Shown here: in pieces, positions 5,361-16,120 of the stretch
Layout: every line of letters begins with the position of its first letter
Numbering within the stretch: position 1 is the stretch's first letter
Origin: Oscillospiraceae bacterium
Lineage (GTDB): Bacteria > Bacillota > Clostridia > UBA1212 > UBA1255
Direction of reading: 5' to 3'
DNA: 64,000 bases
Assembly: GCA_015069185.1 (NCBI GenBank)
Contig: SVJB01000007.1
Coordinates: forward strand, 4,524 to 68,523
Translations under genes and position numbers: made by a program
The notes under the pieces: generated by a model
The model's input: the letters and a program-made list of their open reading frames with translations, nothing else
Databases searched by the model: none
What the model was told of the DNA's origin: nothing

Positions 5361-5397
5361 AATGCGACCGGATTTATTTCCGGTCGCATTCTGTTTT
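5361..5397. terminator. Bidirectional rho-independent terminator between convergent genes
   Basis: AATGCGACCGGA (5361-5372), loop TTTATT, TCCGGTCGCATT (5379-5390), then CTGTTTT on the plus strand. On the minus strand the hairpin is followed by TTTACAAA. Confidence 0.8.
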
Positions 5398-6316
5398 ATA
5401 TATTTCCTGACAAAACATGCACAACGTACTTCTCTATCATTTTCACAGGATGATAGCTAAGCTTAGAGCGGCGCAAATTAAGATCGCCCGCGTCATCTTC
5501 CCGATTGATATAAGGAACATCTTGAGCAAACCGCTTGGCCATCTCGCTGACCAGTACCTGATGAGCGCCGGGATACGAGCTGTCACATTTCTCAAAATGT
5601 TCATAGAGCGTATCTCCTATCTTCTCTGCCAGGCAAACACCGATAATTTTTTCATCTACAATCAGCGCTCCACCGAGAAAATTATATATACCATAATTAT
5701 TAAAATATTCCGGTATCTTACCATATTCTGCCACTGCCGTATCCGCCGTTTTAGGATTATCGCGCACATATTGTGCGCAGAAATCATGGGCAGGTTGGAT
5801 AAAATCTTCTGTTATTTCCACAAACCTGTAATCAGGATACAACAATTTAAATTTATTCACATGATTGCGTTCCCCATGGTATTTCTTTCCTTTGAAAAAC
5901 ATCAGATCCTGTGAGTTATAAACGTAATCAAATGCATTTTCATCTGCAAAATATGTAATTGCAGAGCCATATTTTTCACAGATATTTGTAATTTCTGAGG
6001 CAGTCACAGTAACGAGAATAAATTCGGAATCGCCCATTAGATGATGCATGCTACGTAGCATATCGATCCCTTTGAGAAAGTCCTCGGATCTGCCACTAAG
6101 AGGTATGGGAGATGCATATACACAACCCTCATTAACAGAATTATATTGAATAAAGAGAATATCTTCCTCTACACAATATCTCACCCCATAAAACTCGCGC
6201 CAGCCAAAGAAGCAACCTACTGTATTATCACAGACACCATTTATATAGCTATTAACGTATTTTCTGACTGTGTCAACCATATTCAGGCTAAGAACATGAA
6301 AATCTTCCTGTCTCAT
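5396..6316 (-). CDS. DUF2156-like (lysyl-PG synthase C-terminal/GNAT-like) protein
   Basis: 306 aa. Size and the ...FFGWREFYGVRYCVEEDILFIQY... region fit my recollection of DUF2156; this needs HMM confirmation. 4-nt overlap with the upstream gene. Confidence 0.45.
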   Translation of the reverse strand: MRQEDFHVLSLNMVDTVRKYVNSYINGVCDNTVGCFFGWREFYGVRYCVEEDILFIQYNSVNEGCVYASPIPLSGRSEDFLKGIDMLRSMHHLMGDSEFILVTVTASEITNICEKYGSAITYFADENAFDYVYNSQDLMFFKGKKYHGERNHVNKFKLLYPDYRFVEITEDFIQPAHDFCAQYVRDNPKTADTAVAEYGKIPEYFNNYGIYNFLGGALIVDEKIIGVCLAEKIGDTLYEHFEKCDSSYPGAHQVLVSEMAKRFAQDVPYINREDDAGDLNLRRSKLSYHPVKMIEKYVVHVLSGNI

Positions 6317-7101
6317 TGGCCGCTCTCCCTGCTGATATCACGTACTCCATCGTTAGAACGGGCCCACACATCTCTCTTGACAGCCCCAAAAATATTGCGA
6401 CGAATATCATGATTGTCATTTTCTAACATTTTAATAGTATCTTTAATTTGAGAACGTTTGCTTGTCTTATCCATAGGACACAGATTAGTGACAACGGGAA
6501 TTGCATCTCCTTGTTCCCGTACAAAAGCTTTAATCTCACCTTCTGTAACATATATAAACGGACGTATTACACTGACACGGCTACGACTGAGCCATGTATT
6601 CGGAGAGAAACAGTAAAATCGTCCTTCGTACGACAGGCTAAGCATTGCAGTCTCGATAACATCATCCTTATGATGAGCAAGTGCAACAACATTGCATCCC
6701 AGACGTGCGGCATGGTCATTCAAAGCGCCGCGACGCAGATTTGCGCATAGTGCACAGGGATTTGACTCCTTGCGTATATCAAACACAACCTCTGCAATAG
6801 AAGACTCTACAAAAGTAAAATGAACACCAAGAGAGTCGCAATATTTCTGCAGCGCCTCGCGTGTTTCTTCCTTATTCGCAAAACCGAGGCTGATATGTAC
6901 AGCCTCGAGTTCAAATTTCTTAGGGTAAAAACGTTTCAAATACGCAAGTACAGCAAGCATCGCAGAGCTGTCTTTTCCTCCGGAAAGGCCAACGCAAACG
7001 CGATCACCGTCTTGTATCATATCGTAGTCCTGCACGCTTCTACGCGTCAAGCTTAAAAGTTTCTTCAATTTATCAGTCAGCTCCAAACGGACTGCCTCCA
7101 C
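6313..7101 (-). CDS. ttcA: TtcA-family PP-loop ATPase (tRNA 2-thiocytidine synthetase-like)
   Basis: PP-loop SGGKDS, CALCANLRRG and HHKDD motifs. The start is GTG at 7101, abutting the GT2 stop. An alternative TTG at 7086 has GGAGG 8 nt upstream. Confidence 0.7.
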   Translation of the reverse strand: MEAVRLELTDKLKKLLSLTRRSVQDYDMIQDGDRVCVGLSGGKDSSAMLAVLAYLKRFYPKKFELEAVHISLGFANKEETREALQKYCDSLGVHFTFVESSIAEVVFDIRKESNPCALCANLRRGALNDHAARLGCNVVALAHHKDDVIETAMLSLSYEGRFYCFSPNTWLSRSRVSVIRPFIYVTEGEIKAFVREQGDAIPVVTNLCPMDKTSKRSQIKDTIKMLENDNHDIRRNIFGAVKRDVWARSNDGVRDISRESGQ

Positions 7102-8037
7102 TCAATCAAAATTAATTTTTTCTTGTATAACGTATAGCGGTCTTCCCTTAACTTCTTCGTAAATACGACCGATATAACTACCAAGGATTCCCAGAATCAT
7201 AAGAATAATTCCGTTGAAAAACAGGGATATTGCCACAATAGAGGTCCATCCCATAACTGTAGATAATACACCGCACAGCTTGAGAATCACGAGAACAATA
7301 CCGTAAATCAGGCTGGCAATTGATATACCAACACCAAGATATGTGGCAAGTTTCAGTGGCTTTAATGAGAAAGACATGATAGCGTCTCCCGCAAACTTAA
7401 GCATTTTCTTAAGAGGATACTTAGTAGTGCCTGCAAATCTCTTTTCACGAACAAACTCAACCGGCGCACTCTTAAAACCAAGCCAGCTAATAATACCGCG
7501 AACGTAGCGATTCTTCTCTGAAATACTATTTTTAAGCGCGTCACAAACTTTACGGTCAATCAATCTGAAATCACCTGTATCAACAGGAATCTCAGTATCT
7601 GTCATTTTATTAAGAGTACGGTAGAAAACCTTAGCAGTAAACTTCTTAAAGAACGAATCACCTTCACGTTTGAGGCGCTTTCCATATACAACATCGTATC
7701 CCTCACGCCACTTTGCCATCATCTGAGGAATAACCTCCGGCGGATCCTGAAGGTCTGCATCTATAACAACCACAGCATCGCCACATGAATTATCCATGCC
7801 GGCAGATATAGCTACCTGATGTCCAAAATTACGGGCAAAATCAATCAACTTAACATTCTTATCCTTATAGCAGATAGCACTTGCCAGATCGCGTGTCTTA
7901 TCACGGCTACCATCATTTACAAAAATAAGCTCGTATGTTTCACCCGTGCCGTCCATAACAGACTTAAGTCTCTTATAAGTTTCCATAATAACTTCTTCTT
8001 CATTGTACATTGGTACAACAACTGATACAATACACAT
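7102..8037 (-). CDS. GT2 polyprenyl-phosphate sugar synthase (DPM1/Ppm1/GtrB/CsbB-like) with C-terminal TM helices
   Basis: VVVPMYNEEE, NDGSRD and IDADLQDPPE (DxD) motifs, plus two C-terminal TM helices. ATG 8037 has GGAGAG SD. The ORF-track start 8079 is less likely. Confidence 0.8.
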   Translation of the reverse strand: MCIVSVVVPMYNEEEVIMETYKRLKSVMDGTGETYELIFVNDGSRDKTRDLASAICYKDKNVKLIDFARNFGHQVAISAGMDNSCGDAVVVIDADLQDPPEVIPQMMAKWREGYDVVYGKRLKREGDSFFKKFTAKVFYRTLNKMTDTEIPVDTGDFRLIDRKVCDALKNSISEKNRYVRGIISWLGFKSAPVEFVREKRFAGTTKYPLKKMLKFAGDAIMSFSLKPLKLATYLGVGISIASLIYGIVLVILKLCGVLSTVMGWTSIVAISLFFNGIILMILGILGSYIGRIYEEVKGRPLYVIQEKINFD

Positions 8038-8054
8038 AGTTATCTCTCCTTTTC

Positions 8055-10595
8055 TTAAAAGTCCCAAGAACCAAACCAACGAAGTACGTTGTCAATATAC
8101 GTTTCCTTTACAGTCATACCGGTAAGAGCCGGATAGAACATGATAAACAGTATTGCCACAATTATCATATATCCCAATACAACATACTTAGATATAACCT
8201 TATCTTCACGTAACACCTTTATTACATATACAATCATAAACATCAGGAATGGAATTGCTGTGAAATAATGGTATATGAAGCACACTCTTGTAACTAAAAT
8301 CCACGGGAACAACTGCAAAGCATACGCAATAAATACCATAATCATGCCCTTTTCACGACGCTTGAAGGCAAAATACAGGCAAGGTATTATGCATATAAGT
8401 CCCAGCCACCAGATTGCAGGATTGCCCATCGATACGATCGTCGCGTCCATTCCACTGGCAAGGCCTGCGCCTGAGCCGGAGTAATACCAGATAGGTCTGT
8501 AATCAATCAGCCAGGTGTACCAAGGAGAACCAAAGCTGTGAGTTGCATCTAGTCCGGAATGGTAATTATACATGGCTTTCTGGTTGTCAAGCATAATCTG
8601 CCACAGCGACATATCCGGTTTTGATGCCATGTAAGGAAGATATGATAACAGGTAAATCGCGCCCGGTATTATAATAAAGAACACAACACAGGCAAGGCAT
8701 GTCGGCAAGAAATTCTTAAGCAGATAATCCTCAATAGTACCTTTTCCCTTAACCCGGCCTGATACATAATTATTGATTTCCAACGCTTTTGCCATAAAGA
8801 ACAATATTGCAAGTCCGGCCCCGGCATACAAGCACGTCCATTTTGACGCAGCACCCAAACCAAACATAATACCGCACAGGAAAAGTGGTATAAACGATTT
8901 CCACAACGGCTTGTTATATGATTTCTCAGTAAAGTAATCATACATAAAGTAATACATTGCGATAACAAAGAAGCATGAGTATGAGTCAATAGTAGCAAGA
9001 CGAGTCTGCGCCAGACGCATAAAGTCAAACATTATCAGGAACGCCGCCAGGAATGCATATCTGCGCTCTTTGAAAACTTTAAGGCCAAAGAGATACATAA
9101 GCGGCACCATCATCACACCAAATAAAGTTCCCATGAATCTCCAACCGAATGGATTCATGCCAAATATTCTGATGCCAATAGATATAAATGTTTTACCAAG
9201 CGGCGGATGTGTCCATTCGTAAATTGACAATCCGTTTATATGCTCATATGCCGTGCGTGGGAAGTAAATCTCATCAAAATAGGTACCGTTCTCAAATGTA
9301 CGATACATTTGTACATCTTTCTGTTCATCAAAGAGCTTACCGGGATTGCTGTCAGGGTTAACTGTCTTATCATAACTCTCTGATACAACAGTAACGGCAA
9401 CCTTTTCATACTCTCCGTTTTGATTTCTCTTAAAAAATCCCATTTCATTAAGACTGGTACCACTGCCACTGGCTTGTATAGTAACCCTCTTTGCCGTGAA
9501 AGTCTTGTCTATAAATTTCCACTCATAGAATGTTACATCCTTAATCTGGCCTACAGTTTTATTTATAGGCGTCACGGTACCATCCTCGGCTACCGAAGCA
9601 CCTTCATAAGTTATTGTAAATGTGCCCGAACCTGGGATGCCGGCACTGTAAGCAACTCGTGATATCTCTGTCTCCTCCGGGAATTCAACAGTAACAGACT
9701 CCCCTGTCTGAGCCGGCGTCCAATCAGAACTTGCAGCAGACATATCGCCCAGATTAGCAAATGACATTACCGCTGTAATCAATGTCATTACAATCAGGAT
9801 AATACAATCCTTCTTACCTAATCTGGGTTTCGTTTCCCCCAGGCGTCTCTTATTCTTGTTATTTTCTTCGTCAGACTTAATAGCCAGGAAAATAATATAT
9901 ACAACAAGACCGATGAGTAGCACGGTGAAAATAATTTTCATTAAGCGAGCTTCGGAAGCTTTTTCCGGATCTTCTGCCTCTGATTTATGTGCGTCAAAGC
10001 AATCAGCACCACTGGGAACTTTAGATACTTTTGTGATAGTTACATTATCAACACTGACCGTGCCCTGAGACTCTGCACTGAAGCCACCAAGACAAATACA
10101 AAATTCCATGGAAGTTTGTTTTCCTGTAGCCATATATGTTGTTACAGTTTTCCAAGCTCCCGAGGTATCATACATAGATGCTGAGTGCGCAGAATGACCT
10201 TTAGTTGAGATATTTACTCCGGCACCTTTCAGCCCATCCTCACGATTTGTATCAACATTTTCATACTTAACATCAAAAGTAACTTTATAATAGGAATTAC
10301 CTTTAACTTTCAGAGTCTGTACAAGTCGCACGTCATTTTTTGAGCTACTCGATATAACTGCGTACTTATTTCCGTTTTCCGATGCAATCTGTACTGTGCT
10401 GCAGTTGTTTCCCACCGATTTCTGGTAGTCATAAACACTCCAGTTTGCAATGGAAGCACCTTCTCCATTCTCAAAGTCACCGTTTTTCAGTTCTGTTTTC
10501 ACAGCGCCAATACAGCCGGTGGATAATATGCCTGTGATAATACACAGCAGTACAAGTACTGTGATAATCACTATGTGCTTCATGTGTTTCCTCAT
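8055..10595 (-). CDS. PMT-family (GT39-like) GT-C glycosyltransferase with N-terminal CBM4_9-like and internal discoidin-like ectodomains
   Basis: Loop-1 catalytic motif YFDEIYFPRTAYEH, with D441-E442 at 9270-9275. More than 9 TM helices. N-terminal jelly-roll NGDFENG...SYYKVTFDVKYENV...GTVSVDNVTI. Internal ...FYEWKFIDKTFTAKRVTIQASGSGTSLNEMGFF. Confidence 0.75.
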   Translation of the reverse strand: MRKHMKHIVIITVLVLLCIITGILSTGCIGAVKTELKNGDFENGEGASIANWSVYDYQKSVGNNCSTVQIASENGNKYAVISSSSKNDVRLVQTLKVKGNSYYKVTFDVKYENVDTNREDGLKGAGVNISTKGHSAHSASMYDTSGAWKTVTTYMATGKQTSMEFCICLGGFSAESQGTVSVDNVTITKVSKVPSGADCFDAHKSEAEDPEKASEARLMKIIFTVLLIGLVVYIIFLAIKSDEENNKNKRRLGETKPRLGKKDCIILIVMTLITAVMSFANLGDMSAASSDWTPAQTGESVTVEFPEETEISRVAYSAGIPGSGTFTITYEGASVAEDGTVTPINKTVGQIKDVTFYEWKFIDKTFTAKRVTIQASGSGTSLNEMGFFKRNQNGEYEKVAVTVVSESYDKTVNPDSNPGKLFDEQKDVQMYRTFENGTYFDEIYFPRTAYEHINGLSIYEWTHPPLGKTFISIGIRIFGMNPFGWRFMGTLFGVMMVPLMYLFGLKVFKERRYAFLAAFLIMFDFMRLAQTRLATIDSYSCFFVIAMYYFMYDYFTEKSYNKPLWKSFIPLFLCGIMFGLGAASKWTCLYAGAGLAILFFMAKALEINNYVSGRVKGKGTIEDYLLKNFLPTCLACVVFFIIIPGAIYLLSYLPYMASKPDMSLWQIMLDNQKAMYNYHSGLDATHSFGSPWYTWLIDYRPIWYYSGSGAGLASGMDATIVSMGNPAIWWLGLICIIPCLYFAFKRREKGMIMVFIAYALQLFPWILVTRVCFIYHYFTAIPFLMFMIVYVIKVLREDKVISKYVVLGYMIIVAILFIMFYPALTGMTVKETYIDNVLRWFGSWDF

Positions 10596-12775
10596 TTTAC
10601 GCGCCTTCCTTCATCTATAATAGACTCTTTCCAGATTTTGCTTTTTTCATTATCAGTTTTGATAACATTAAATACCATCAGAACAGTTATCGCTGTTAAT
10701 GCGATACATGTCAATACATTGCCCCAGGCCATCAGAAGTCTCTCAGGATTCAGATAGTTCCAATAATAATATGCCATTGCTTCATAGTCTGTTTCACGCA
10801 GCTCCCCGCCTACAGTAAGGCCGGTCATAACTTCTAATACAGTGAAGAAATTAGATAGAGTAGTGACTCCGAACAAAGCAAGCAATAGCTTGTTGTTTGA
10901 CAGAATAACAGCAAACAAAAGCAGTATTATAACCGGGAAGAAATATCTTTCATGCATTCTGGGTCCAAATGTTACAACATTATACAGAAGTGTTGCAGAG
11001 ATAAGCCATACAAGATACGGTTTTTTCTTAGTATCTGCAAACATATACAATACCCAGGCAAGTATGGCAGCCTCGACAATTGCCAACATACCCAGATGAT
11101 TCCATGTGATGCCAAGATTGCCTATAGGTAATACAACCTGGCTGTCAGATACCCAGTTCTTGCCAAGAATATAGAACGCATTAAACGCGTTTACACTGGC
11201 ATACTCATATCCGTCTACTGTGCCAATGTACAAATCATATATCCATACAAATATATTTGGCTCCATTTTGATACCAAACGGTAACATAATCGCAAGGAAT
11301 ACAGCAGAGAAAGCTGCAATACTTTTCACAATAAGCATTATTCTCCTTGATATCTTCATACTGCTGCGCGAACTGACAAGTATCTTAAACAGCGCGTATC
11401 CTATAATAGGGATCATCATAATACCCTGAGGCTTCAGCGCTACGGCAAAGGCCAACGCAATGGAAGCCGGAATGTAACGGTTCTGCGATATCCAGTAAAT
11501 AGCGCCTACTATAAACATGCTGAGAAGCGTATCAACCTGTCCCCATGCGGTGGAGTCAAGTATTACGATGGGATTGAACAACCAAAGCGATACTGCTATT
11601 AATGTCCAATTCTTATTGGCGTTGCGCAGATTCTTGCACCATGCATATATAACAAATGCTATCGCGCAATCTGCAAGCATTGACGGAAGTTTTATGAGCA
11701 CTGTGCATATCGCAGAGGCTGTGCCCACTTTGAAAATACTGCAAAACTTACCAACAAACCAAAGCCAATACATAAGCAGCGGCGGATAGTCAAGATTGAT
11801 AGATTCTGCATGTTTATATAGTTCTGTCGGGCCGTATTCCGCAACCTTCACGCCCCAATATTTAAATAAGTTAACGTCTATATCACATTGCGGCAAGGTT
11901 ACTGAACCTATCAGTCGAACAATAAATCCTATCAGAATAAGAATAATAACACTCCATATTATATTGGTATTACTCTCTTGCGGTCTTATCAACACGCCTT
12001 TATCTCTATTGCGGGCATACATCATACAAATAACAAACACTGCTATCGTTATAACCATAATAATGAATCCAGCAGATAAAGTGTCATCATGTTTTTCGTT
12101 TTTAAATCTATCCCTTTGTTGTTCCTGCTTAATCGCAGACATGGTGTCTTCCATAGAATATGCAATAACACCTTTTGGAAGCTCTGACAGTTGCTCTACA
12201 CATAGGTCATCAAACCATACCTTGCCTGTGTTGATACCACTGTAGAAGCCAAGTCTCAGGCAAAGATCAAAGCTTGTCTGCTCTTTACCCGTTTGTCCAA
12301 AGAATTCCAGCAAAGTCCAGTCCTGATTGCCGGTGTAGGTATAGCTACGATAGCTTGTATTCAGCACAGATATGTTGGCACCAATCGTACCATCCTCTTC
12401 ACTGACATTTTCCGTTTTAATCCAGACTGACACTCTATAGTAAGTGTTCTTACGTGCATCATCAACTTTGAGCACATATCTGGCATCGTTTTGTGAAATA
12501 TTCTGAATAGACAGGCATCGGCTATCGTCCATGCCACCCGCTTCTTCATACGTGAAAACGGTCACACCGCCTCTTGCGTCATATGCATCAGTCACAAGCC
12601 CGCCCTGAGTCTGGTTAAAGTCACATTCATATATAACCTTATCCTCTGCCGGAGTATTATCCTTGTCCGATTTTTTAAACAAGCAGCCGGTAAGAACGCC
12701 TGCGATGGCAGCAATGATACAGATACATGCTGCTATCATAACCATTCGCTTGTTGTTCTTAAAAAACTTCCTCAT
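10592..12775 (-). CDS. Second GT-C-type polytopic glycosyltransferase (DUF2029/Gpi18-like) with paralogous N-terminal CBM4_9-like ectodomain
   Basis: Lipobox-like VLTGC. Jelly-roll NDARYVLKVDDARKNTYYRVSVWIKTENV...GKVWFDDLCVEQL. INLDYPPLLMYWLWF motif and more than 10 TM helices. ATGA overlaps at both ends. Confidence 0.65.
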   Translation of the reverse strand: MRKFFKNNKRMVMIAACICIIAAIAGVLTGCLFKKSDKDNTPAEDKVIYECDFNQTQGGLVTDAYDARGGVTVFTYEEAGGMDDSRCLSIQNISQNDARYVLKVDDARKNTYYRVSVWIKTENVSEEDGTIGANISVLNTSYRSYTYTGNQDWTLLEFFGQTGKEQTSFDLCLRLGFYSGINTGKVWFDDLCVEQLSELPKGVIAYSMEDTMSAIKQEQQRDRFKNEKHDDTLSAGFIIMVITIAVFVICMMYARNRDKGVLIRPQESNTNIIWSVIILILIGFIVRLIGSVTLPQCDIDVNLFKYWGVKVAEYGPTELYKHAESINLDYPPLLMYWLWFVGKFCSIFKVGTASAICTVLIKLPSMLADCAIAFVIYAWCKNLRNANKNWTLIAVSLWLFNPIVILDSTAWGQVDTLLSMFIVGAIYWISQNRYIPASIALAFAVALKPQGIMMIPIIGYALFKILVSSRSSMKISRRIMLIVKSIAAFSAVFLAIMLPFGIKMEPNIFVWIYDLYIGTVDGYEYASVNAFNAFYILGKNWVSDSQVVLPIGNLGITWNHLGMLAIVEAAILAWVLYMFADTKKKPYLVWLISATLLYNVVTFGPRMHERYFFPVIILLLFAVILSNNKLLLALFGVTTLSNFFTVLEVMTGLTVGGELRETDYEAMAYYYWNYLNPERLLMAWGNVLTCIALTAITVLMVFNVIKTDNEKSKIWKESIIDEGRRVK

Positions 12776-13497
12776 GCCTTTACTAACCTTTCTACCACTG
12801 CACCGGGCTCAATCTCTACCTCTTTGTTGTACAGCAATTCATCAATAACACATCCGCTTCGTATAATAGCGCTATCGCAATACAGCTGTCCTATATAACA
12901 CGCAGACAAATCCGCTTCTATACAATCAATAAAATCTGAAGTTAGCGTATATTTTTTCTTACCTTCAAATTTGAGTTCTTCGTTTTCAGGTCTACGTACC
13001 ACAAGGATATCTGTTACAACGTTCCTTATCTCCGATTGTTTGCTGGATACGATATGGATCTCCGTACTTTTCACCGAAGATGTTGATCTTATTTTGCCAA
13101 AGACTTTTAAAACATCCGACTTAATCTTCGCAGTGGTATCCAGCATCGCATCTTTATTCAAATTTATTCTACCGCTGCGGATAACATCGTAGGCTGTTAT
13201 CTCTCCACTTGATAAAATAGACTCTGTATAAACCTTATCGTAAAACCAAATAGTGCCACCTCTTATCTTGATATGCTGTGTCATCACATCGCTCTTGGCA
13301 CGACATTCTCCGGTAATGGTCAGCTTGTCACAGGTAAGCCAAGAGCCAAACTGTGCCTGACCGGTTATCTCTACAACATTAGCATCTACATTTCTGGTGA
13401 AAAGTATCTGTCCCGTTACATTAAGATTACCGATATCAACTGCCTCATTTATGGTTTCTCTGCCATCTAAGACAATTCCGTCAAACTTACCGGTCAA
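12772..13497 (-). CDS. Hypothetical beta-helix repeat protein (bactofilin-like, low confidence)
   Basis: 241 aa with repetitive short-strand pattern (NLNVTGQILF, VVEITGQAQF, KLTITGECRA, IKIRGGTIWF...). TTG start overlaps the pepF stop (TTGA). Confidence 0.4.
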   Translation of the reverse strand: MTGKFDGIVLDGRETINEAVDIGNLNVTGQILFTRNVDANVVEITGQAQFGSWLTCDKLTITGECRAKSDVMTQHIKIRGGTIWFYDKVYTESILSSGEITAYDVIRSGRINLNKDAMLDTTAKIKSDVLKVFGKIRSTSSVKSTEIHIVSSKQSEIRNVVTDILVVRRPENEELKFEGKKKYTLTSDFIDCIEADLSACYIGQLYCDSAIIRSGCVIDELLYNKEVEIEPGAVVERLVKA

Positions 13498-15314
13498 TTA
13501 AAAACAGCCTCCAACTCTGCTACCTTTGCAGCAAATACGTCAAGAGCACTTTGGATTACAGCAGAATCCGTCAGATCCACGCCCGCTCTTTTAAGAATAT
13601 TAAGAGGATAATCACTACCACCACTCTTTAAGAAGTCAAGATATTTCTCAGTAGCACCGCCAGGCTCGTTATTTATATCCTTTAAGATGCCGGCGCTAAG
13701 TGCTGTAGCTGCGCTGAATCCTGTTGCATACTGATATACATAGAATGAATTATAAAAGTGTGGTATACGTGCCCACTCAAGTTGAATGTCTTTGTCAACA
13801 GAGCAGCCTTTTCCGTAATACTTCTTATTAAGCTTGTAATAAATATCACACATAGCTTCGCAAGTAAGCGGCTCGCCGGCCTGATCCTTGGCGTGAGCCT
13901 TCTTCTCAAACTCCGCAAACATTGTTTGTCTGTAAACTGTAGCGCGGAACTCTTCCAGATAATGGTTGAGAAGATATGCTTCCTTCACAGTATCTCCTGC
14001 TTTACGGGCTTCATCCAGCATGTATGTCATGAGTAGGTTTTCATTTACAGTAGAGGCAACCTCTGCCACAAATATTTTATACGAAGCATACTGATATGGT
14101 TGATTTGAGTTGCTGTAGAATGAATGCATTGCATGACCCAACTCATGAGCCAGAGTAAACACATCATTTATCTCTCCTTGCCAGTTAAGAAGTACATATG
14201 GGTGTGAATCGTAGCAGCCCCATGAATACGCGCCACTGGTCTTACCTCTGTTTTCATAGACATCGATCCAGCCATCTGTAAAGGCCTTCTTCATATCCTC
14301 CACATACTGCTGCCCCATAGGCTCTACTGCCTTGATAACAATCTCTTTTGCTTCTTCAAAGGTGTATTTTACTTTTGGCATCTCAACAATCGGCACATAC
14401 AAATCGTACATACGCAGACGTTTCACGCCCAGAACTTTCTTACGGAGCTGCAAATATCTTGTGAGCGTATCCAGATTTGCATGCATTGTACTGATAAGGT
14501 TATTATATACCTTCACTGAAATATCATCTGTACTAAGCTCTGCCTCCAGCGCACTCTTGTACTTACGTACCTTAGCGCTGAAATTGTCTGCCTTTACATT
14601 GCCACAATAAAGCTGTGCGATTGTATTCTTAAATGAACCATAAGTTTTATACAGCGCTGTGAAAGCATCTTTTCTGACTCTTCTGTCTTTAGATTCAAGG
14701 AATCCTGAATATCTGCCGTGAGTCAGTTCTATTTTCTTTCCTAATTCATCTTTTATTGCAGGGAATCTTAAGTCTGCATTATTGAGCATTGTAAATGCAT
14801 TATGTCCTGTCTGGAGCGCTTCACTTGCCAGTGCCAGTAACTTTTCTTCGTTTGCAGACAGAATATGCTCTTTGAGCTTAAGCATCTGACTTAAAATAAA
14901 TTCATATTCTTTGAGTTCCGGTGTTTTCTCCATAAAAAACTGAAGTTTGCCATCTTCCATAGCCAGCACTTCAGGCTCAAAGAAAGATACAGTACTCACT
15001 AATTTGTAGTAAAGGCTTGCTGCCTGTGCGAACATGTTCTGATACACAGCATTTGCATTGTCCTCATCGCGGCGCATCCTTGTGTACACGTAAAGTCTCT
15101 CTGTCTGGCGACTAGCTTCTGACTGTTTCTCAAGATATTCATACAAAATACGACCTGATTTTATATGAAGACGACCCTCATATTTCTTGAGCTCTGTAAT
15201 CAGGCTGTCTGCCTGTGCCATAGCCTCTGTACACACATCGTCATTTGTAAAAATATCTTCTAATTTCCATTTATATGCAGCGTCAATTTCGCTCCTTAAC
15301 TGTAGTTCTTCCAT
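13494..15314 (-). CDS. pepF: Oligoendopeptidase F (M3B)
   Basis: HELGHAMH zincin motif, ~606 aa, typical PepF N-terminus. ATG 15314 has AGGAGGG 6 nt upstream. Confidence 0.85.
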   Translation of the reverse strand: MEELQLRSEIDAAYKWKLEDIFTNDDVCTEAMAQADSLITELKKYEGRLHIKSGRILYEYLEKQSEASRQTERLYVYTRMRRDEDNANAVYQNMFAQAASLYYKLVSTVSFFEPEVLAMEDGKLQFFMEKTPELKEYEFILSQMLKLKEHILSANEEKLLALASEALQTGHNAFTMLNNADLRFPAIKDELGKKIELTHGRYSGFLESKDRRVRKDAFTALYKTYGSFKNTIAQLYCGNVKADNFSAKVRKYKSALEAELSTDDISVKVYNNLISTMHANLDTLTRYLQLRKKVLGVKRLRMYDLYVPIVEMPKVKYTFEEAKEIVIKAVEPMGQQYVEDMKKAFTDGWIDVYENRGKTSGAYSWGCYDSHPYVLLNWQGEINDVFTLAHELGHAMHSFYSNSNQPYQYASYKIFVAEVASTVNENLLMTYMLDEARKAGDTVKEAYLLNHYLEEFRATVYRQTMFAEFEKKAHAKDQAGEPLTCEAMCDIYYKLNKKYYGKGCSVDKDIQLEWARIPHFYNSFYVYQYATGFSAATALSAGILKDINNEPGGATEKYLDFLKSGGSDYPLNILKRAGVDLTDSAVIQSALDVFAAKVAELEAVFN

Positions 15315-15343
15315 TTCAAACCCTCCTATGTGATAACATTGGG

Positions 15344-15372
15344 ATATTAGCACAAAAAGAGGGTTTTTTCAA
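15344..15372 (-). promoter_or_regulatory. SigA-type promoter of the pepF-to-DUF2156 operon
   Basis: Minus strand: TTGAAA (15367-15372), 17 nt spacer, TAATAT (15344-15349). Confidence 0.5.
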
Positions 15373-15407: not shown

Positions 15408-15782
15408 TTATTCATTGTCTAAAATCCATGCTAATAAATCATCATATTTCATTACACCGGAGGCAACAGCAATACCTACTCGTGCCACATCATCTACATC
15501 AGGGTGGATTCGTATTCCATTAACCTCAAGAAATGTTAGCAGCACATACATTCCTATTCGTTTATTTCCATCAACAAAAGCATGATTTGATATTAATGCA
15601 TATCCAAGGCGAGCGCCTTTTTCCTCCTTTGTAGGATATAACTCTTTGCCATCAAAAGTTTGAAACGCAGATTCAAGCGCGCTCTCAAGGAGTGCGATAT
15701 CACGTATATTAGGATCTCCACCCGTTTCTTCAGTTATTAATTTATGCAGCAAAAGCACTTTTTCTTGACTAAATTTTATCAT
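15408..15782 (-). CDS. doc: Doc (death-on-curing, Fic-fold) toxin
   Basis: Doc/Fic motif HAFVDGNKR. 124 aa. 4-nt overlap with the upstream antitoxin gene. Confidence 0.85.
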   Translation of the reverse strand: MIKFSQEKVLLLHKLITEETGGDPNIRDIALLESALESAFQTFDGKELYPTKEEKGARLGYALISNHAFVDGNKRIGMYVLLTFLEVNGIRIHPDVDDVARVGIAVASGVMKYDDLLAWILDNE

Positions 15783-16021
15783 TTCGCAAGTTCCTCAAAA
15801 GCGCGGTGATATTGACGAAGAATTCTCGCAGCAACAAAATCAATTTTTTCATCATCAGACATATCAATATTTGAATCTTCTTCAAGATTAACAATCTTGT
15901 ATTTTGGCTTATTGTTTTTGAAAATATATATTTCACCTTTCTGGTCAACCATGCGTGCCACTCGTGAAAAGTTCTGATTTGCTTCTGAAATTGATATAAT
16001 CTTACTTGTGTTAATATCCAT
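15779..16021 (-). CDS. phd: Phd/YefM-family antitoxin
   Basis: 80 aa. ISISEANQNFSRVARMVDQKGEIYIFKNNKP is a typical Phd N-terminus. ATG 16021 has AGGAGG 7 nt upstream. Confidence 0.75.
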   Translation of the reverse strand: MDINTSKIISISEANQNFSRVARMVDQKGEIYIFKNNKPKYKIVNLEEDSNIDMSDDEKIDFVAARILRQYHRAFEELAK

Positions 16022-16120
16022 GTTAGCACCTCCTATTGTGCTATTAATATTATACACATATTTTAGGATATTTCTATACTAAAATATTTTTTCTTATTTA
16101 TTCGATACAAACATCATATC

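Follow-up and report, generated by a model that had tools for sequence, protein, structure and literature searches.

Within a 64,000-nucleotide stretch of an Oscillospiraceae bacterium contig (SVJB01000007.1), referred to here as the window, a block of seven co-directional and tightly packed minus-strand genes spans positions 5396-15314 and combines enzymes of lipid-carrier-type glycosylation with a peptidase and three proteins of other kinds. The host is a gut/rumen member of the Clostridia with a 2.1 Mb, 85%-complete genome, and the GC content is uniform along the block. In the order of transcription, the genes encode PepF, an M3B oligoendopeptidase F of 606 aa (13494-15314; assigned by TIGR00181 and HELGH); a bactofilin-like cytoplasmic beta-solenoid of 241 aa (12772-13497; 17-residue period, PF04519 sub-threshold); a GT-C glycosyltransferase of the GT87/ALG6/PIG-M kind of 727 aa (10592-12775; family profile, Foldseek, and the GT87 matches of its homologues); a protein O-mannosyltransferase (PMT)-like, GT39-type GT-C of 846 aa (8055-10595; Pfam PMT models and an Asp-Glu motif); a GtrB/PgfS/ArnC-type family 2 glycosyltransferase (GT2) of 311 aa, a putative polyprenyl-phosphate sugar synthase (7102-8037; Glycos_transf_2 and a DAD motif); a TtcA-family PP-loop/[4Fe-4S]-type sulfurtransferase of 262 aa (6313-7101; SGGKDS and three Cys); and a stand-alone DUF2156 protein of 306 aa, homologous to the C-terminal domain of MprF (5396-6316; LPG_synthase_C).

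The mechanical list of open reading frames (ORFs) of the window gives the longest minus-strand ORFs, at 13494-15353, 12772-13497, 10592-12775, 8055-10595, 7102-8079, 6313-7101, and 5396-6316, and two of these starts were corrected. The start of pepF is placed at ATG 15314 behind AGGAGG, with the GTG at 15353 falling inside the promoter, and that of the GT2 gene at ATG 8037 behind AAGGAGAG, 17 nt past the stop of the PMT-like gene, such that there is no overlap at this junction. Stop and start codons overlap by 4 nt between pepF and the beta-solenoid gene (TTGA, 13494-13497), between the beta-solenoid gene and the 727-aa GT-C gene (ATGA, 12772-12775), between the two GT-C genes (ATGA, 10592-10595), and between ttcA and the DUF2156 gene (ATGA, 6313-6316), with the GTG start of ttcA at 7101 directly abutting the GT2 stop (7102-7104). 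An earlier note on this DNA, made from its letters alone, had described seven minus-strand genes with these junctions, and all of them were borne out when the ORF list and overlaps were re-read.

A sigma-70-type promoter, TTGAAA-17-TAATAT with an upstream TG (extended -10), lies at 15344-15372 on the minus strand, where the earlier note had placed it. It is recovered by pattern scan. Three species of the genus share an identical sequence from -35 to -10 and through the leader, beyond which the upstream DNA can no longer be aligned, a combination that marks the site as a phylogenetic footprint. At the opposite edge, a GC-rich hairpin terminator with a 12-bp stem (5361-5390) is shared with a convergent plus-strand gene. 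The hairpin of the bidirectional terminator claimed there is strong (-24.2 kcal/mol on the operon strand, z -8), but the stem is followed on that strand by no more than UUUUA, and the scan labels it a terminator on the plus strand only. A phd/doc-like gene pair (window 15408-16057) sits between malQ and the pepF promoter; in the genus's two other species pepF is preceded by neither the pair nor malQ, making the upstream edge of the block a synteny breakpoint.

Judged from these signals and from the packing of the genes, the seven genes probably form one co-transcribed block. The same stretch could instead hold several packed transcription units with internal promoters, for instance before the bactofilin-like gene or the GT2 gene, in which case operon membership would say little on function; we consider this rather unlikely. 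Relatives without an upstream pepF must begin transcription at the bactofilin-like gene, and a 10/12 promoter-like site is present at 8695-8668, within the PMT-like gene and upstream of the GT2 gene, both of which speak for internal starts. Five of the six junctions, however, have no intergenic space, and the sole conserved promoter footprint found is that upstream of pepF, with internal regions not aligned for footprints. Internal promoter-like matches (40 versus 36.8 +/- 5.6 expected by chance) and terminator-like matches (10 versus 8.0 +/- 2.9) are no commoner than chance; they lend the several-unit arrangement no support, and as counts at chance level they argue neither for nor against a splitting of the block.

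The larger of the two GT-C enzymes carries clear PMT signatures. The 846-aa protein matches PMT_4TMC at 74.5 bits (cut-off 32.4), PMT at 53.7 bits (cut-off 22.7), and PMT_2 at 43.6 bits (cut-off 26.1), and its family profile matches yeast Pmt1, Pmt2, and Pmt4. The loop-1 Asp-Glu previously read in this protein (FDEIYF, 9270-9275) is confirmed, with D441-E442 of the YFDEIYF motif invariant in 15/15 homologues. Ahead of this motif, loop 1 holds an insert of ~150 aa (residues 286-440) with no Pfam match even at an E value of 1, and a discoidin-like label considered for this insert stayed unconfirmed.

The 727-aa protein itself has no Pfam match at E <= 0.001, and its kind emerges from relatives and from structure. 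GT87 (PF09594) is matched in 22/30 aligned homologues, and the family profile matches glycosylphosphatidylinositol (GPI) mannosyltransferase 1 in the PDB (E 2e-12). Foldseek searches with the AlphaFold2 model (pLDDT 86.4) return, for its membrane part, yeast ALG6 (E 2.3e-6, TMt 0.67) and GPI mannosyltransferase I (E 2.3e-5, TMt 0.70). The earlier designation of this protein as a GT-C therefore holds, with its kind now given as GT87/ALG6/PIG-M by way of its relatives and model. Residue D300 and the motifs DYPP, WGQV, KPQ, and MHERY are invariant across 30 homologues, D300 (30/30) being the conserved acidic residue of the first extracytoplasmic loop. Residues ~45-196 match the folds of the carbohydrate-binding modules (CBMs) CBM70, CBM4, CBM22, and CBM16 in Foldseek, and both GT-Cs open with a paralogous module in which a CBM4_9-like domain lies between transmembrane (TM) segments (26-29% identity, E ~1e-11). 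Single-sequence searches of both GT-Cs against PDB sequences gave no match, whereas the family profiles did.

The GT2 matches Glycos_transf_2 at 127.6 bits, and the DxD motif and C-terminal TM helices attributed to it are both present, the former as DAD at residues 93-95 within VIDADLQDPP and the latter as two C-terminal hydrophobic helices. Its best NCBIfam matches are sub-threshold, to PgfS (291 bits, cut-off 500) and ArnC (181 bits). No GtrA-type flippase is found among the seven genes with Pfam and NCBIfam, and two GtrA-family (PF04138) genes lie elsewhere in the genome, on contigs C14 and C53. A second GtrB-like GT2 gene, 36% identical to the operon copy, is located at G000:C13:36064-36975 (L164:8053-8994), behind ORFs that by eye are lspA-like and rluD-like and ahead of membrane-protein ORFs, and has orthologues of ~37% identity in most relatives. 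In Mageeibacillus-like metagenome-assembled genomes (MAGs) of genus g3 (L040:8014-11151, L017:10924-14085), a GT2 gene is followed by one for a ~1050-aa protein with a CotH kinase domain, RCC1 repeats, and chitobiase-C/Fn3-associated domains.

Conservation of gene order, on which the earlier note had staked its grouping, was surveyed in 41 genomes from six families of one order. The PMT-like gene and the upstream GT-C gene bearing the paralogous module occur together in 41/41 genomes, and the order pepF, beta-helix gene, GT-C, GT-C is kept in five of the six families. An orthologue of the GT2 (>=65% identity) adjoins the pair in ~19/41 genomes and is unlinked in genus g13. In that genus (L027:10524-13719; L026, L028, L047, L048, L052), the bactofilin-like gene and the two GT-C genes are followed by two phosphonate-type genes, one for a thiamine pyrophosphate enzyme (phosphonopyruvate-decarboxylase-like) and one for a nucleotidyltransferase/cytidylyltransferase/phosphoenolpyruvate mutase fusion, which suggests that the glycan produced there may carry a phosphonate decoration.

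Beyond the order, a scan with the PMT-like alignment, taking one genome per species, yielded at least 582 relatives, of which the best 80 loci were examined and 72 were resolvable. A 727-aa-type GT-C gene lies directly upstream on the same strand in 64 of these 72 loci, across Bacillota, and a GT2 gene directly downstream of the PMT-like gene in 29. The hosts include many Paenibacillus species, Lachnospiraceae, Oscillospiraceae, Acetivibrio, Thermoclostridium, Anaeromicropila, and others, and in none of these loci does pepF, a bactofilin-like gene, ttcA, or a DUF2156 gene stand beside the trio. In Paenibacillus loci the GT87-like and PMT-like enzymes are fused in single ORFs of 1270-1287 aa; a metagenomic contig likewise encodes a GT-C fusion (P0095, 1267 aa) followed by GT2 and GtrA genes, and the cluster of Desulfosporosinus orientis runs epimerase, PMT-like, GT2, GtrA, nucleoside triphosphate (NTP)-transferase, GT87. 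The GT-C pair is thus the stable unit. The conserved order and these Rosetta-stone fusions speak for the two GT-Cs acting on the same pathway, and one GT2 with two GT-Cs is, on gene-order evidence, a recurrent, still uncharacterised module across Bacillota.

With moderate confidence, we favour a reading in which the block is not one pathway and its core, the GT-C pair with the GtrB-type GT2, serves the O-glycosylation of secreted proteins. The GtrB-type GT2 would transfer the sugar moiety of a nucleotide sugar to undecaprenyl phosphate at the cytoplasmic face of the membrane, and the lipid-linked sugar would be flipped across, possibly by a product of the GtrA-family genes that lie elsewhere in the genome. 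Outside, the 846-aa PMT-like GT-C would transfer the sugar to Ser/Thr of secreted or membrane proteins, whilst the 727-aa GT-C, drawing on the same donor, would extend the glycan or serve a second acceptor, and the CBM4_9-like ectodomains of both probably hold glycan or wall substrate. In this scheme PepF would be an ancestral operon-mate that supplies the promoter, and its tie to the GT-Cs may be mere co-expression. What the analysis shows directly is the anatomy of the genes, their families and folds, their conservation, and the fusions, whereas we infer which sugar and acceptor are used, how the GT-Cs divide their work, that the block gives a single transcript, and that the bactofilin-like protein is a scaffold, as considered below. 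That the block holds a lipid-carrier-type glycosylation system, as the earlier note had it, is upheld by the presence of a GtrB-like GT2 together with GT-C enzymes. Its further suggestion that one GT2 serves two GT-Cs stands in part: it is the natural reading, the trio recurs, and the GT-Cs are found fused, but the GT2 is not a fixed partner.

Several observations weigh against the O-glycosylation reading. A GT2 orthologue is missing from ~15/41 genomes with the GT-C pair, which hold only paralogues of 36-45% identity, meaning that the donor synthase is interchangeable and that the GT-Cs need not share a donor. The GT2 remains below the PgfS equivalog cut-off, and the 846-aa protein is not an equivalog of the characterised bacterial Pmt (NF058602, 95.2 bits versus a cut-off of 800). 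Strongly Ser/Thr-rich ORFs number 9/2033 in the genome by a crude filter that is uninformative on acceptors, and the phosphonate genes of g13 fit the decoration of a glycopolymer as well as that of protein glycans. Furthermore, across five families pepF either remains translationally coupled to the gene that follows or lies no more than 15 nt from it, a persistence beyond that expected of a pure passenger.

Some of these points bear on the nature of the acceptor. The same chemistry could be directed at envelope glycopolymers or glycolipids, such as a teichoic-acid-like polymer, a secondary cell-wall polysaccharide, or a lipoglycan, with the GT87-like enzyme acting as its counterparts do on mycobacterial lipoglycans and the CBM-like ectodomains binding the polymer; we take this to be a real possibility, if not a probable one. 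As is generally known, GT87 enzymes act on actinobacterial lipoglycans, and Gram-positive GtrB/GT-C systems commonly decorate lipoteichoic acid, wall teichoic acid, and rhamnopolysaccharides. The CBM4/22/70-like folds of the ectodomains are those of polysaccharide binders, the genus with phosphonate-biosynthesis genes after the GT-C pair would fit such a polymer, and Ser/Thr-rich candidate substrates are scarce. SccN provides an example of envelope-polymer decoration by a Gram-positive GtrB/GT-C system (10.1101/2024.05.05.592596). Glycopolymer acceptors sit less easily with the PMT and PMT_4TMC signatures of the 846-aa enzyme and with its invariant Asp-Glu, which is that of protein O-mannosyltransferases, and the only characterised Firmicute GT39 acts on proteins: deletion of Cbes_1864 in Caldicellulosiruptor bescii abolishes the glycosylation of secreted proteins (PMC6151902). 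Streptococcal GtrB/GT-C pairs, in turn, O-glycosylate Ser/Thr-rich regions (10.1101/2024.05.05.592596). By analogy with these systems, and given the PMT signatures, a protein acceptor is favoured.

The gene that tracks the GT-C pair most closely within the order is that of the beta-solenoid. The 241-aa protein matches the bactofilin family PF04519 at 22.5 bits, below the gathering cut-off of 27.9, and this family is among the precomputed annotations of relatives that are 59% and 90% identical to it. Its AlphaFold2 model (pLDDT 93.9) is an all-beta solenoid in which strand pairs repeat every 17 residues. Foldseek against the PDB gave generic beta-helix matches only, with a best E value of 0.09 and no significant neighbour, such that the fold points to no specific family, and no bactofilin structure stands among the matches listed (50 of 85). 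From its profile matches and modelled fold, the protein appears to be a diverged bactofilin-like protein. It shares the 17-residue-period beta-solenoid with the Firmicute bactofilins BacE and BacF, but differs from them in falling under the Pfam cut-off, in being encoded by a single gene between pepF and the GT-Cs, and in its invariant Cys207 and Cys216.

A strong match to this gene is present in 36/41 genomes of the order, and in 34/41 it immediately precedes the GT-C pair on one contig; it is retained even where pepF is gone, and among the 41 genomes it is absent from families f3 and f6. As it follows the GT-C pair more faithfully than either pepF or the GT2 gene, its likeliest role would be that of a scaffold or adaptor, and the protein is probably an order-specific cytoplasmic partner of the GT-C pair. 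In family f3, both pepF and the bactofilin-like gene are missing at the GT-C locus, and the GT-C pair is preceded, at L020:4653-5621, by a gene for a Cthe_2159-type secreted beta-helix carbohydrate-binding protein. The nearest relatives of the 241-aa beta-solenoid from outside the order adjoin a DUF4004/YhbD-like gene, the arrangement of yhbD-yhbE-yhbF in Bacillus subtilis, with tandem bactofilin-like pairs at L161:7564-10127, L162:7087-8981, and L167:6673-8672, and a single gene at L163:7739-9009.

PepF is described in the literature as a housekeeping enzyme of peptide degradation. The window protein, which is cytoplasmic, matches TIGR00181 at 649.3 bits (cut-off 490.55) with HELGH at residue 390, and its gene is the sole copy in the genome (single tblastn match). 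In 23/41 genomes from five families pepF adjoins the cluster, overlapping the next gene or lying <=15 nt from it in the loci checked; in 16/41 (genera g3 and g13, family f3) it is on another contig or absent, and 2 genomes are unresolved. This linkage is ancient in the order and has since been lost three times. Where pepF lies away from the cluster (G004, G007, G010, and others in g3; G032-G040 in g13), its product is 42-46% identical to the window PepF, compared with 51-60% for linked copies in more distant families, and genus g3 has a second pepF-like gene (~27%). The greater divergence of the unlinked copies suggests displacement by a paralogue. Linkage of pepF and of the 241-aa gene to the glycosyltransferases in other genomes, which the earlier note had proposed to look for, is therefore seen, in 23/41 and 34/41 genomes respectively. 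The tie of pepF to glycosylation that it had drawn holds as synteny and has no known rationale.

A bolder version of the O-glycosylation reading would make the bactofilin-derived scaffold and the sole PepF working parts of a spatially organised, export-coupled protein O-glycosylation machine in this order, with the GT-C pair as a general O-glycosylation system of Bacillota; we regard this as distinctly unlikely. If it were true, the scaffold would position two CBM-bearing GT-Cs, PepF would degrade peptides released from the glycosylated substrates, for instance their signal peptides after cleavage, and the GT87-like and PMT-like pair, fused in some Paenibacillus, would constitute a hitherto unrecognised O-glycosylation system of many Bacillota. 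In the literature, no account was found of a link of PepF to signal peptides or glycosylation, or of a bactofilin with a glycosyltransferase.

The last two genes of the block have a different history. The TtcA-like protein has SGGKDS at residue 40, C116-x2-C119, and C208, scores 181.5 bits against NF007972 without reaching the equivalog cut-off of 272, and is single-copy in the genome. In genus g5 its gene directly follows the PMT-like gene, and in families f2 and f4 it lies on the other strand, convergent with the cluster. The DUF2156 protein matches LPG_synthase_C at 104.8 bits (cut-off 27.5) over residues 28-299, which within its 306 aa leaves no room for the N-terminal membrane flippase domain of MprF. 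The gene is single-copy in 177/300 Clostridia genomes, and the only ones in which it neighbours ttcA or the GT-Cs are those of this genus and two of the sister genus g5, G006 and the L036 MAG. Stand-alone DUF2156 proteins of ~300 aa, also seen at L116-L145, form a very widespread uncharacterised cytosolic family whose genes have no fixed neighbour. Membership of DUF2156 in the glycosylation module was rejected, since six relatives from the order have the gene on a different contig. A conserved tRNA-linked pair of ttcA and DUF2156 was likewise rejected, since among 30 loci the two are neighbours only in the three from this genus and G006, and in 0/27 other Clostridia loci.

Placing all seven products in one pathway could, for example, have PepF clear peptides that arise with export of the glycosylated substrates, while TtcA and DUF2156 would decorate the glycan or the lipid carrier with aminoacyl groups in a tRNA-dependent manner. 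Such a pathway would draw on the four translationally coupled junctions and the fifth that abuts, on the adjacency of pepF in 23 relatives from five families, on the presence of ttcA near the cluster in three families, and on the homology of DUF2156 to the aminoacyl-tRNA-dependent transferase domain of MprF. The narrow distribution of the DUF2156 link, the convergent orientation of ttcA in f2 and f4, and the separation of ttcA from DUF2156 in the other Clostridia loci all argue against it, as do the location of pepF, the sole housekeeping copy, away from the retained GT-C pair in 16 relatives and the failure of pepF, the bactofilin-like gene, ttcA, and DUF2156 to accompany the trio in the loci examined outside the order. 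We therefore hold it to be very improbable. The description of the pathway as "hard-wired" to TtcA and DUF2156 is abandoned, as DUF2156 is linked narrowly and other families have ttcA on the opposite strand. From their genomic distribution, single-copy and located elsewhere in most relatives, TtcA and DUF2156 are most likely housekeeping passengers. A false lead is thereby removed, as both are probably outside the glycosylation pathway.

Protein and envelope glycosylation are poorly mapped in Clostridia and Paenibacillus, and the only genetic anchor found in the literature for a Firmicute GT39 is the C. bescii deletion. In the 80 loci examined of at least 582 matches, the PMT-like GT-C is nearly always accompanied by a GT87/ALG6-like GT-C and often by a GtrB-type synthase. 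This defines a two-step module that can be put to the test, and it is already present in cultivable hosts amenable to genetics. The presence of a bactofilin-like gene beside the GT-C pair order-wide is a new association that, if functional, would tie a cytoskeletal scaffold to extracytoplasmic glycosylation. In the literature, no description was found of a PMT-like/GT87-like/GT2 trio in Bacillota.

The nearest counterparts are partial ones. Cbes_1864, likened to the 846-aa enzyme by its published description and not by sequence, is a membrane GT39/PMT-like GT-C of the Clostridia with a presumed lipid-phosphate sugar donor, and carries a CBM-like module in loop 1 (PMC3082886). It differs in its length of 556 aa and its location in a cellulase locus, with no adjacent GT87-like, GT2, bactofilin, or pepF gene mentioned. 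The actinobacterial Ppm1/Pmt system, with the GT87 PimE-type enzymes, likewise combines a polyprenyl-phosphate sugar synthase, a PMT with the loop-1 Asp-Glu, and a GT87-type GT-C using the same kind of donor. Here, however, the GT2 is GtrB-like with C-terminal TM helices and not Ppm1-like, both GT-Cs carry extra TM-CBM-TM modules, and the Pmt equivalog cut-off is not reached.

In the streptococcal Pgf (PgfS/PgfM1/PgfE/PgfM2) and GtrB/PgtC2 systems, one GtrB-type GT2 feeds GT-Cs whose targets are surface or membrane proteins. Pgf resembles the present block in having two GT-C genes, and PgfS is the best NCBIfam match of the GT2; in contrast to Pgf, no PgfE epimerase is encoded among the seven genes, and the GT-Cs are PMT-like and GT87/ALG6-like. 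The GtrA/GtrB/GtrC, YkcB/YkcC, and CsbB/YfhO systems similarly comprise a DxD GT2 with C-terminal TM helices, a flippase, and an extracytoplasmic GT-C, whereas the cluster described here has no GtrA and two structurally different GT-Cs. Additionally, the 846-aa protein ends in PMT_4TMC, and the enzyme of the Desulfosporosinus cluster in YkcB_C. Set against these systems, the dual PMT-like and GT87/ALG6-like composition, the CBM modules on both enzymes, and the order-specific bactofilin-like partner are new.

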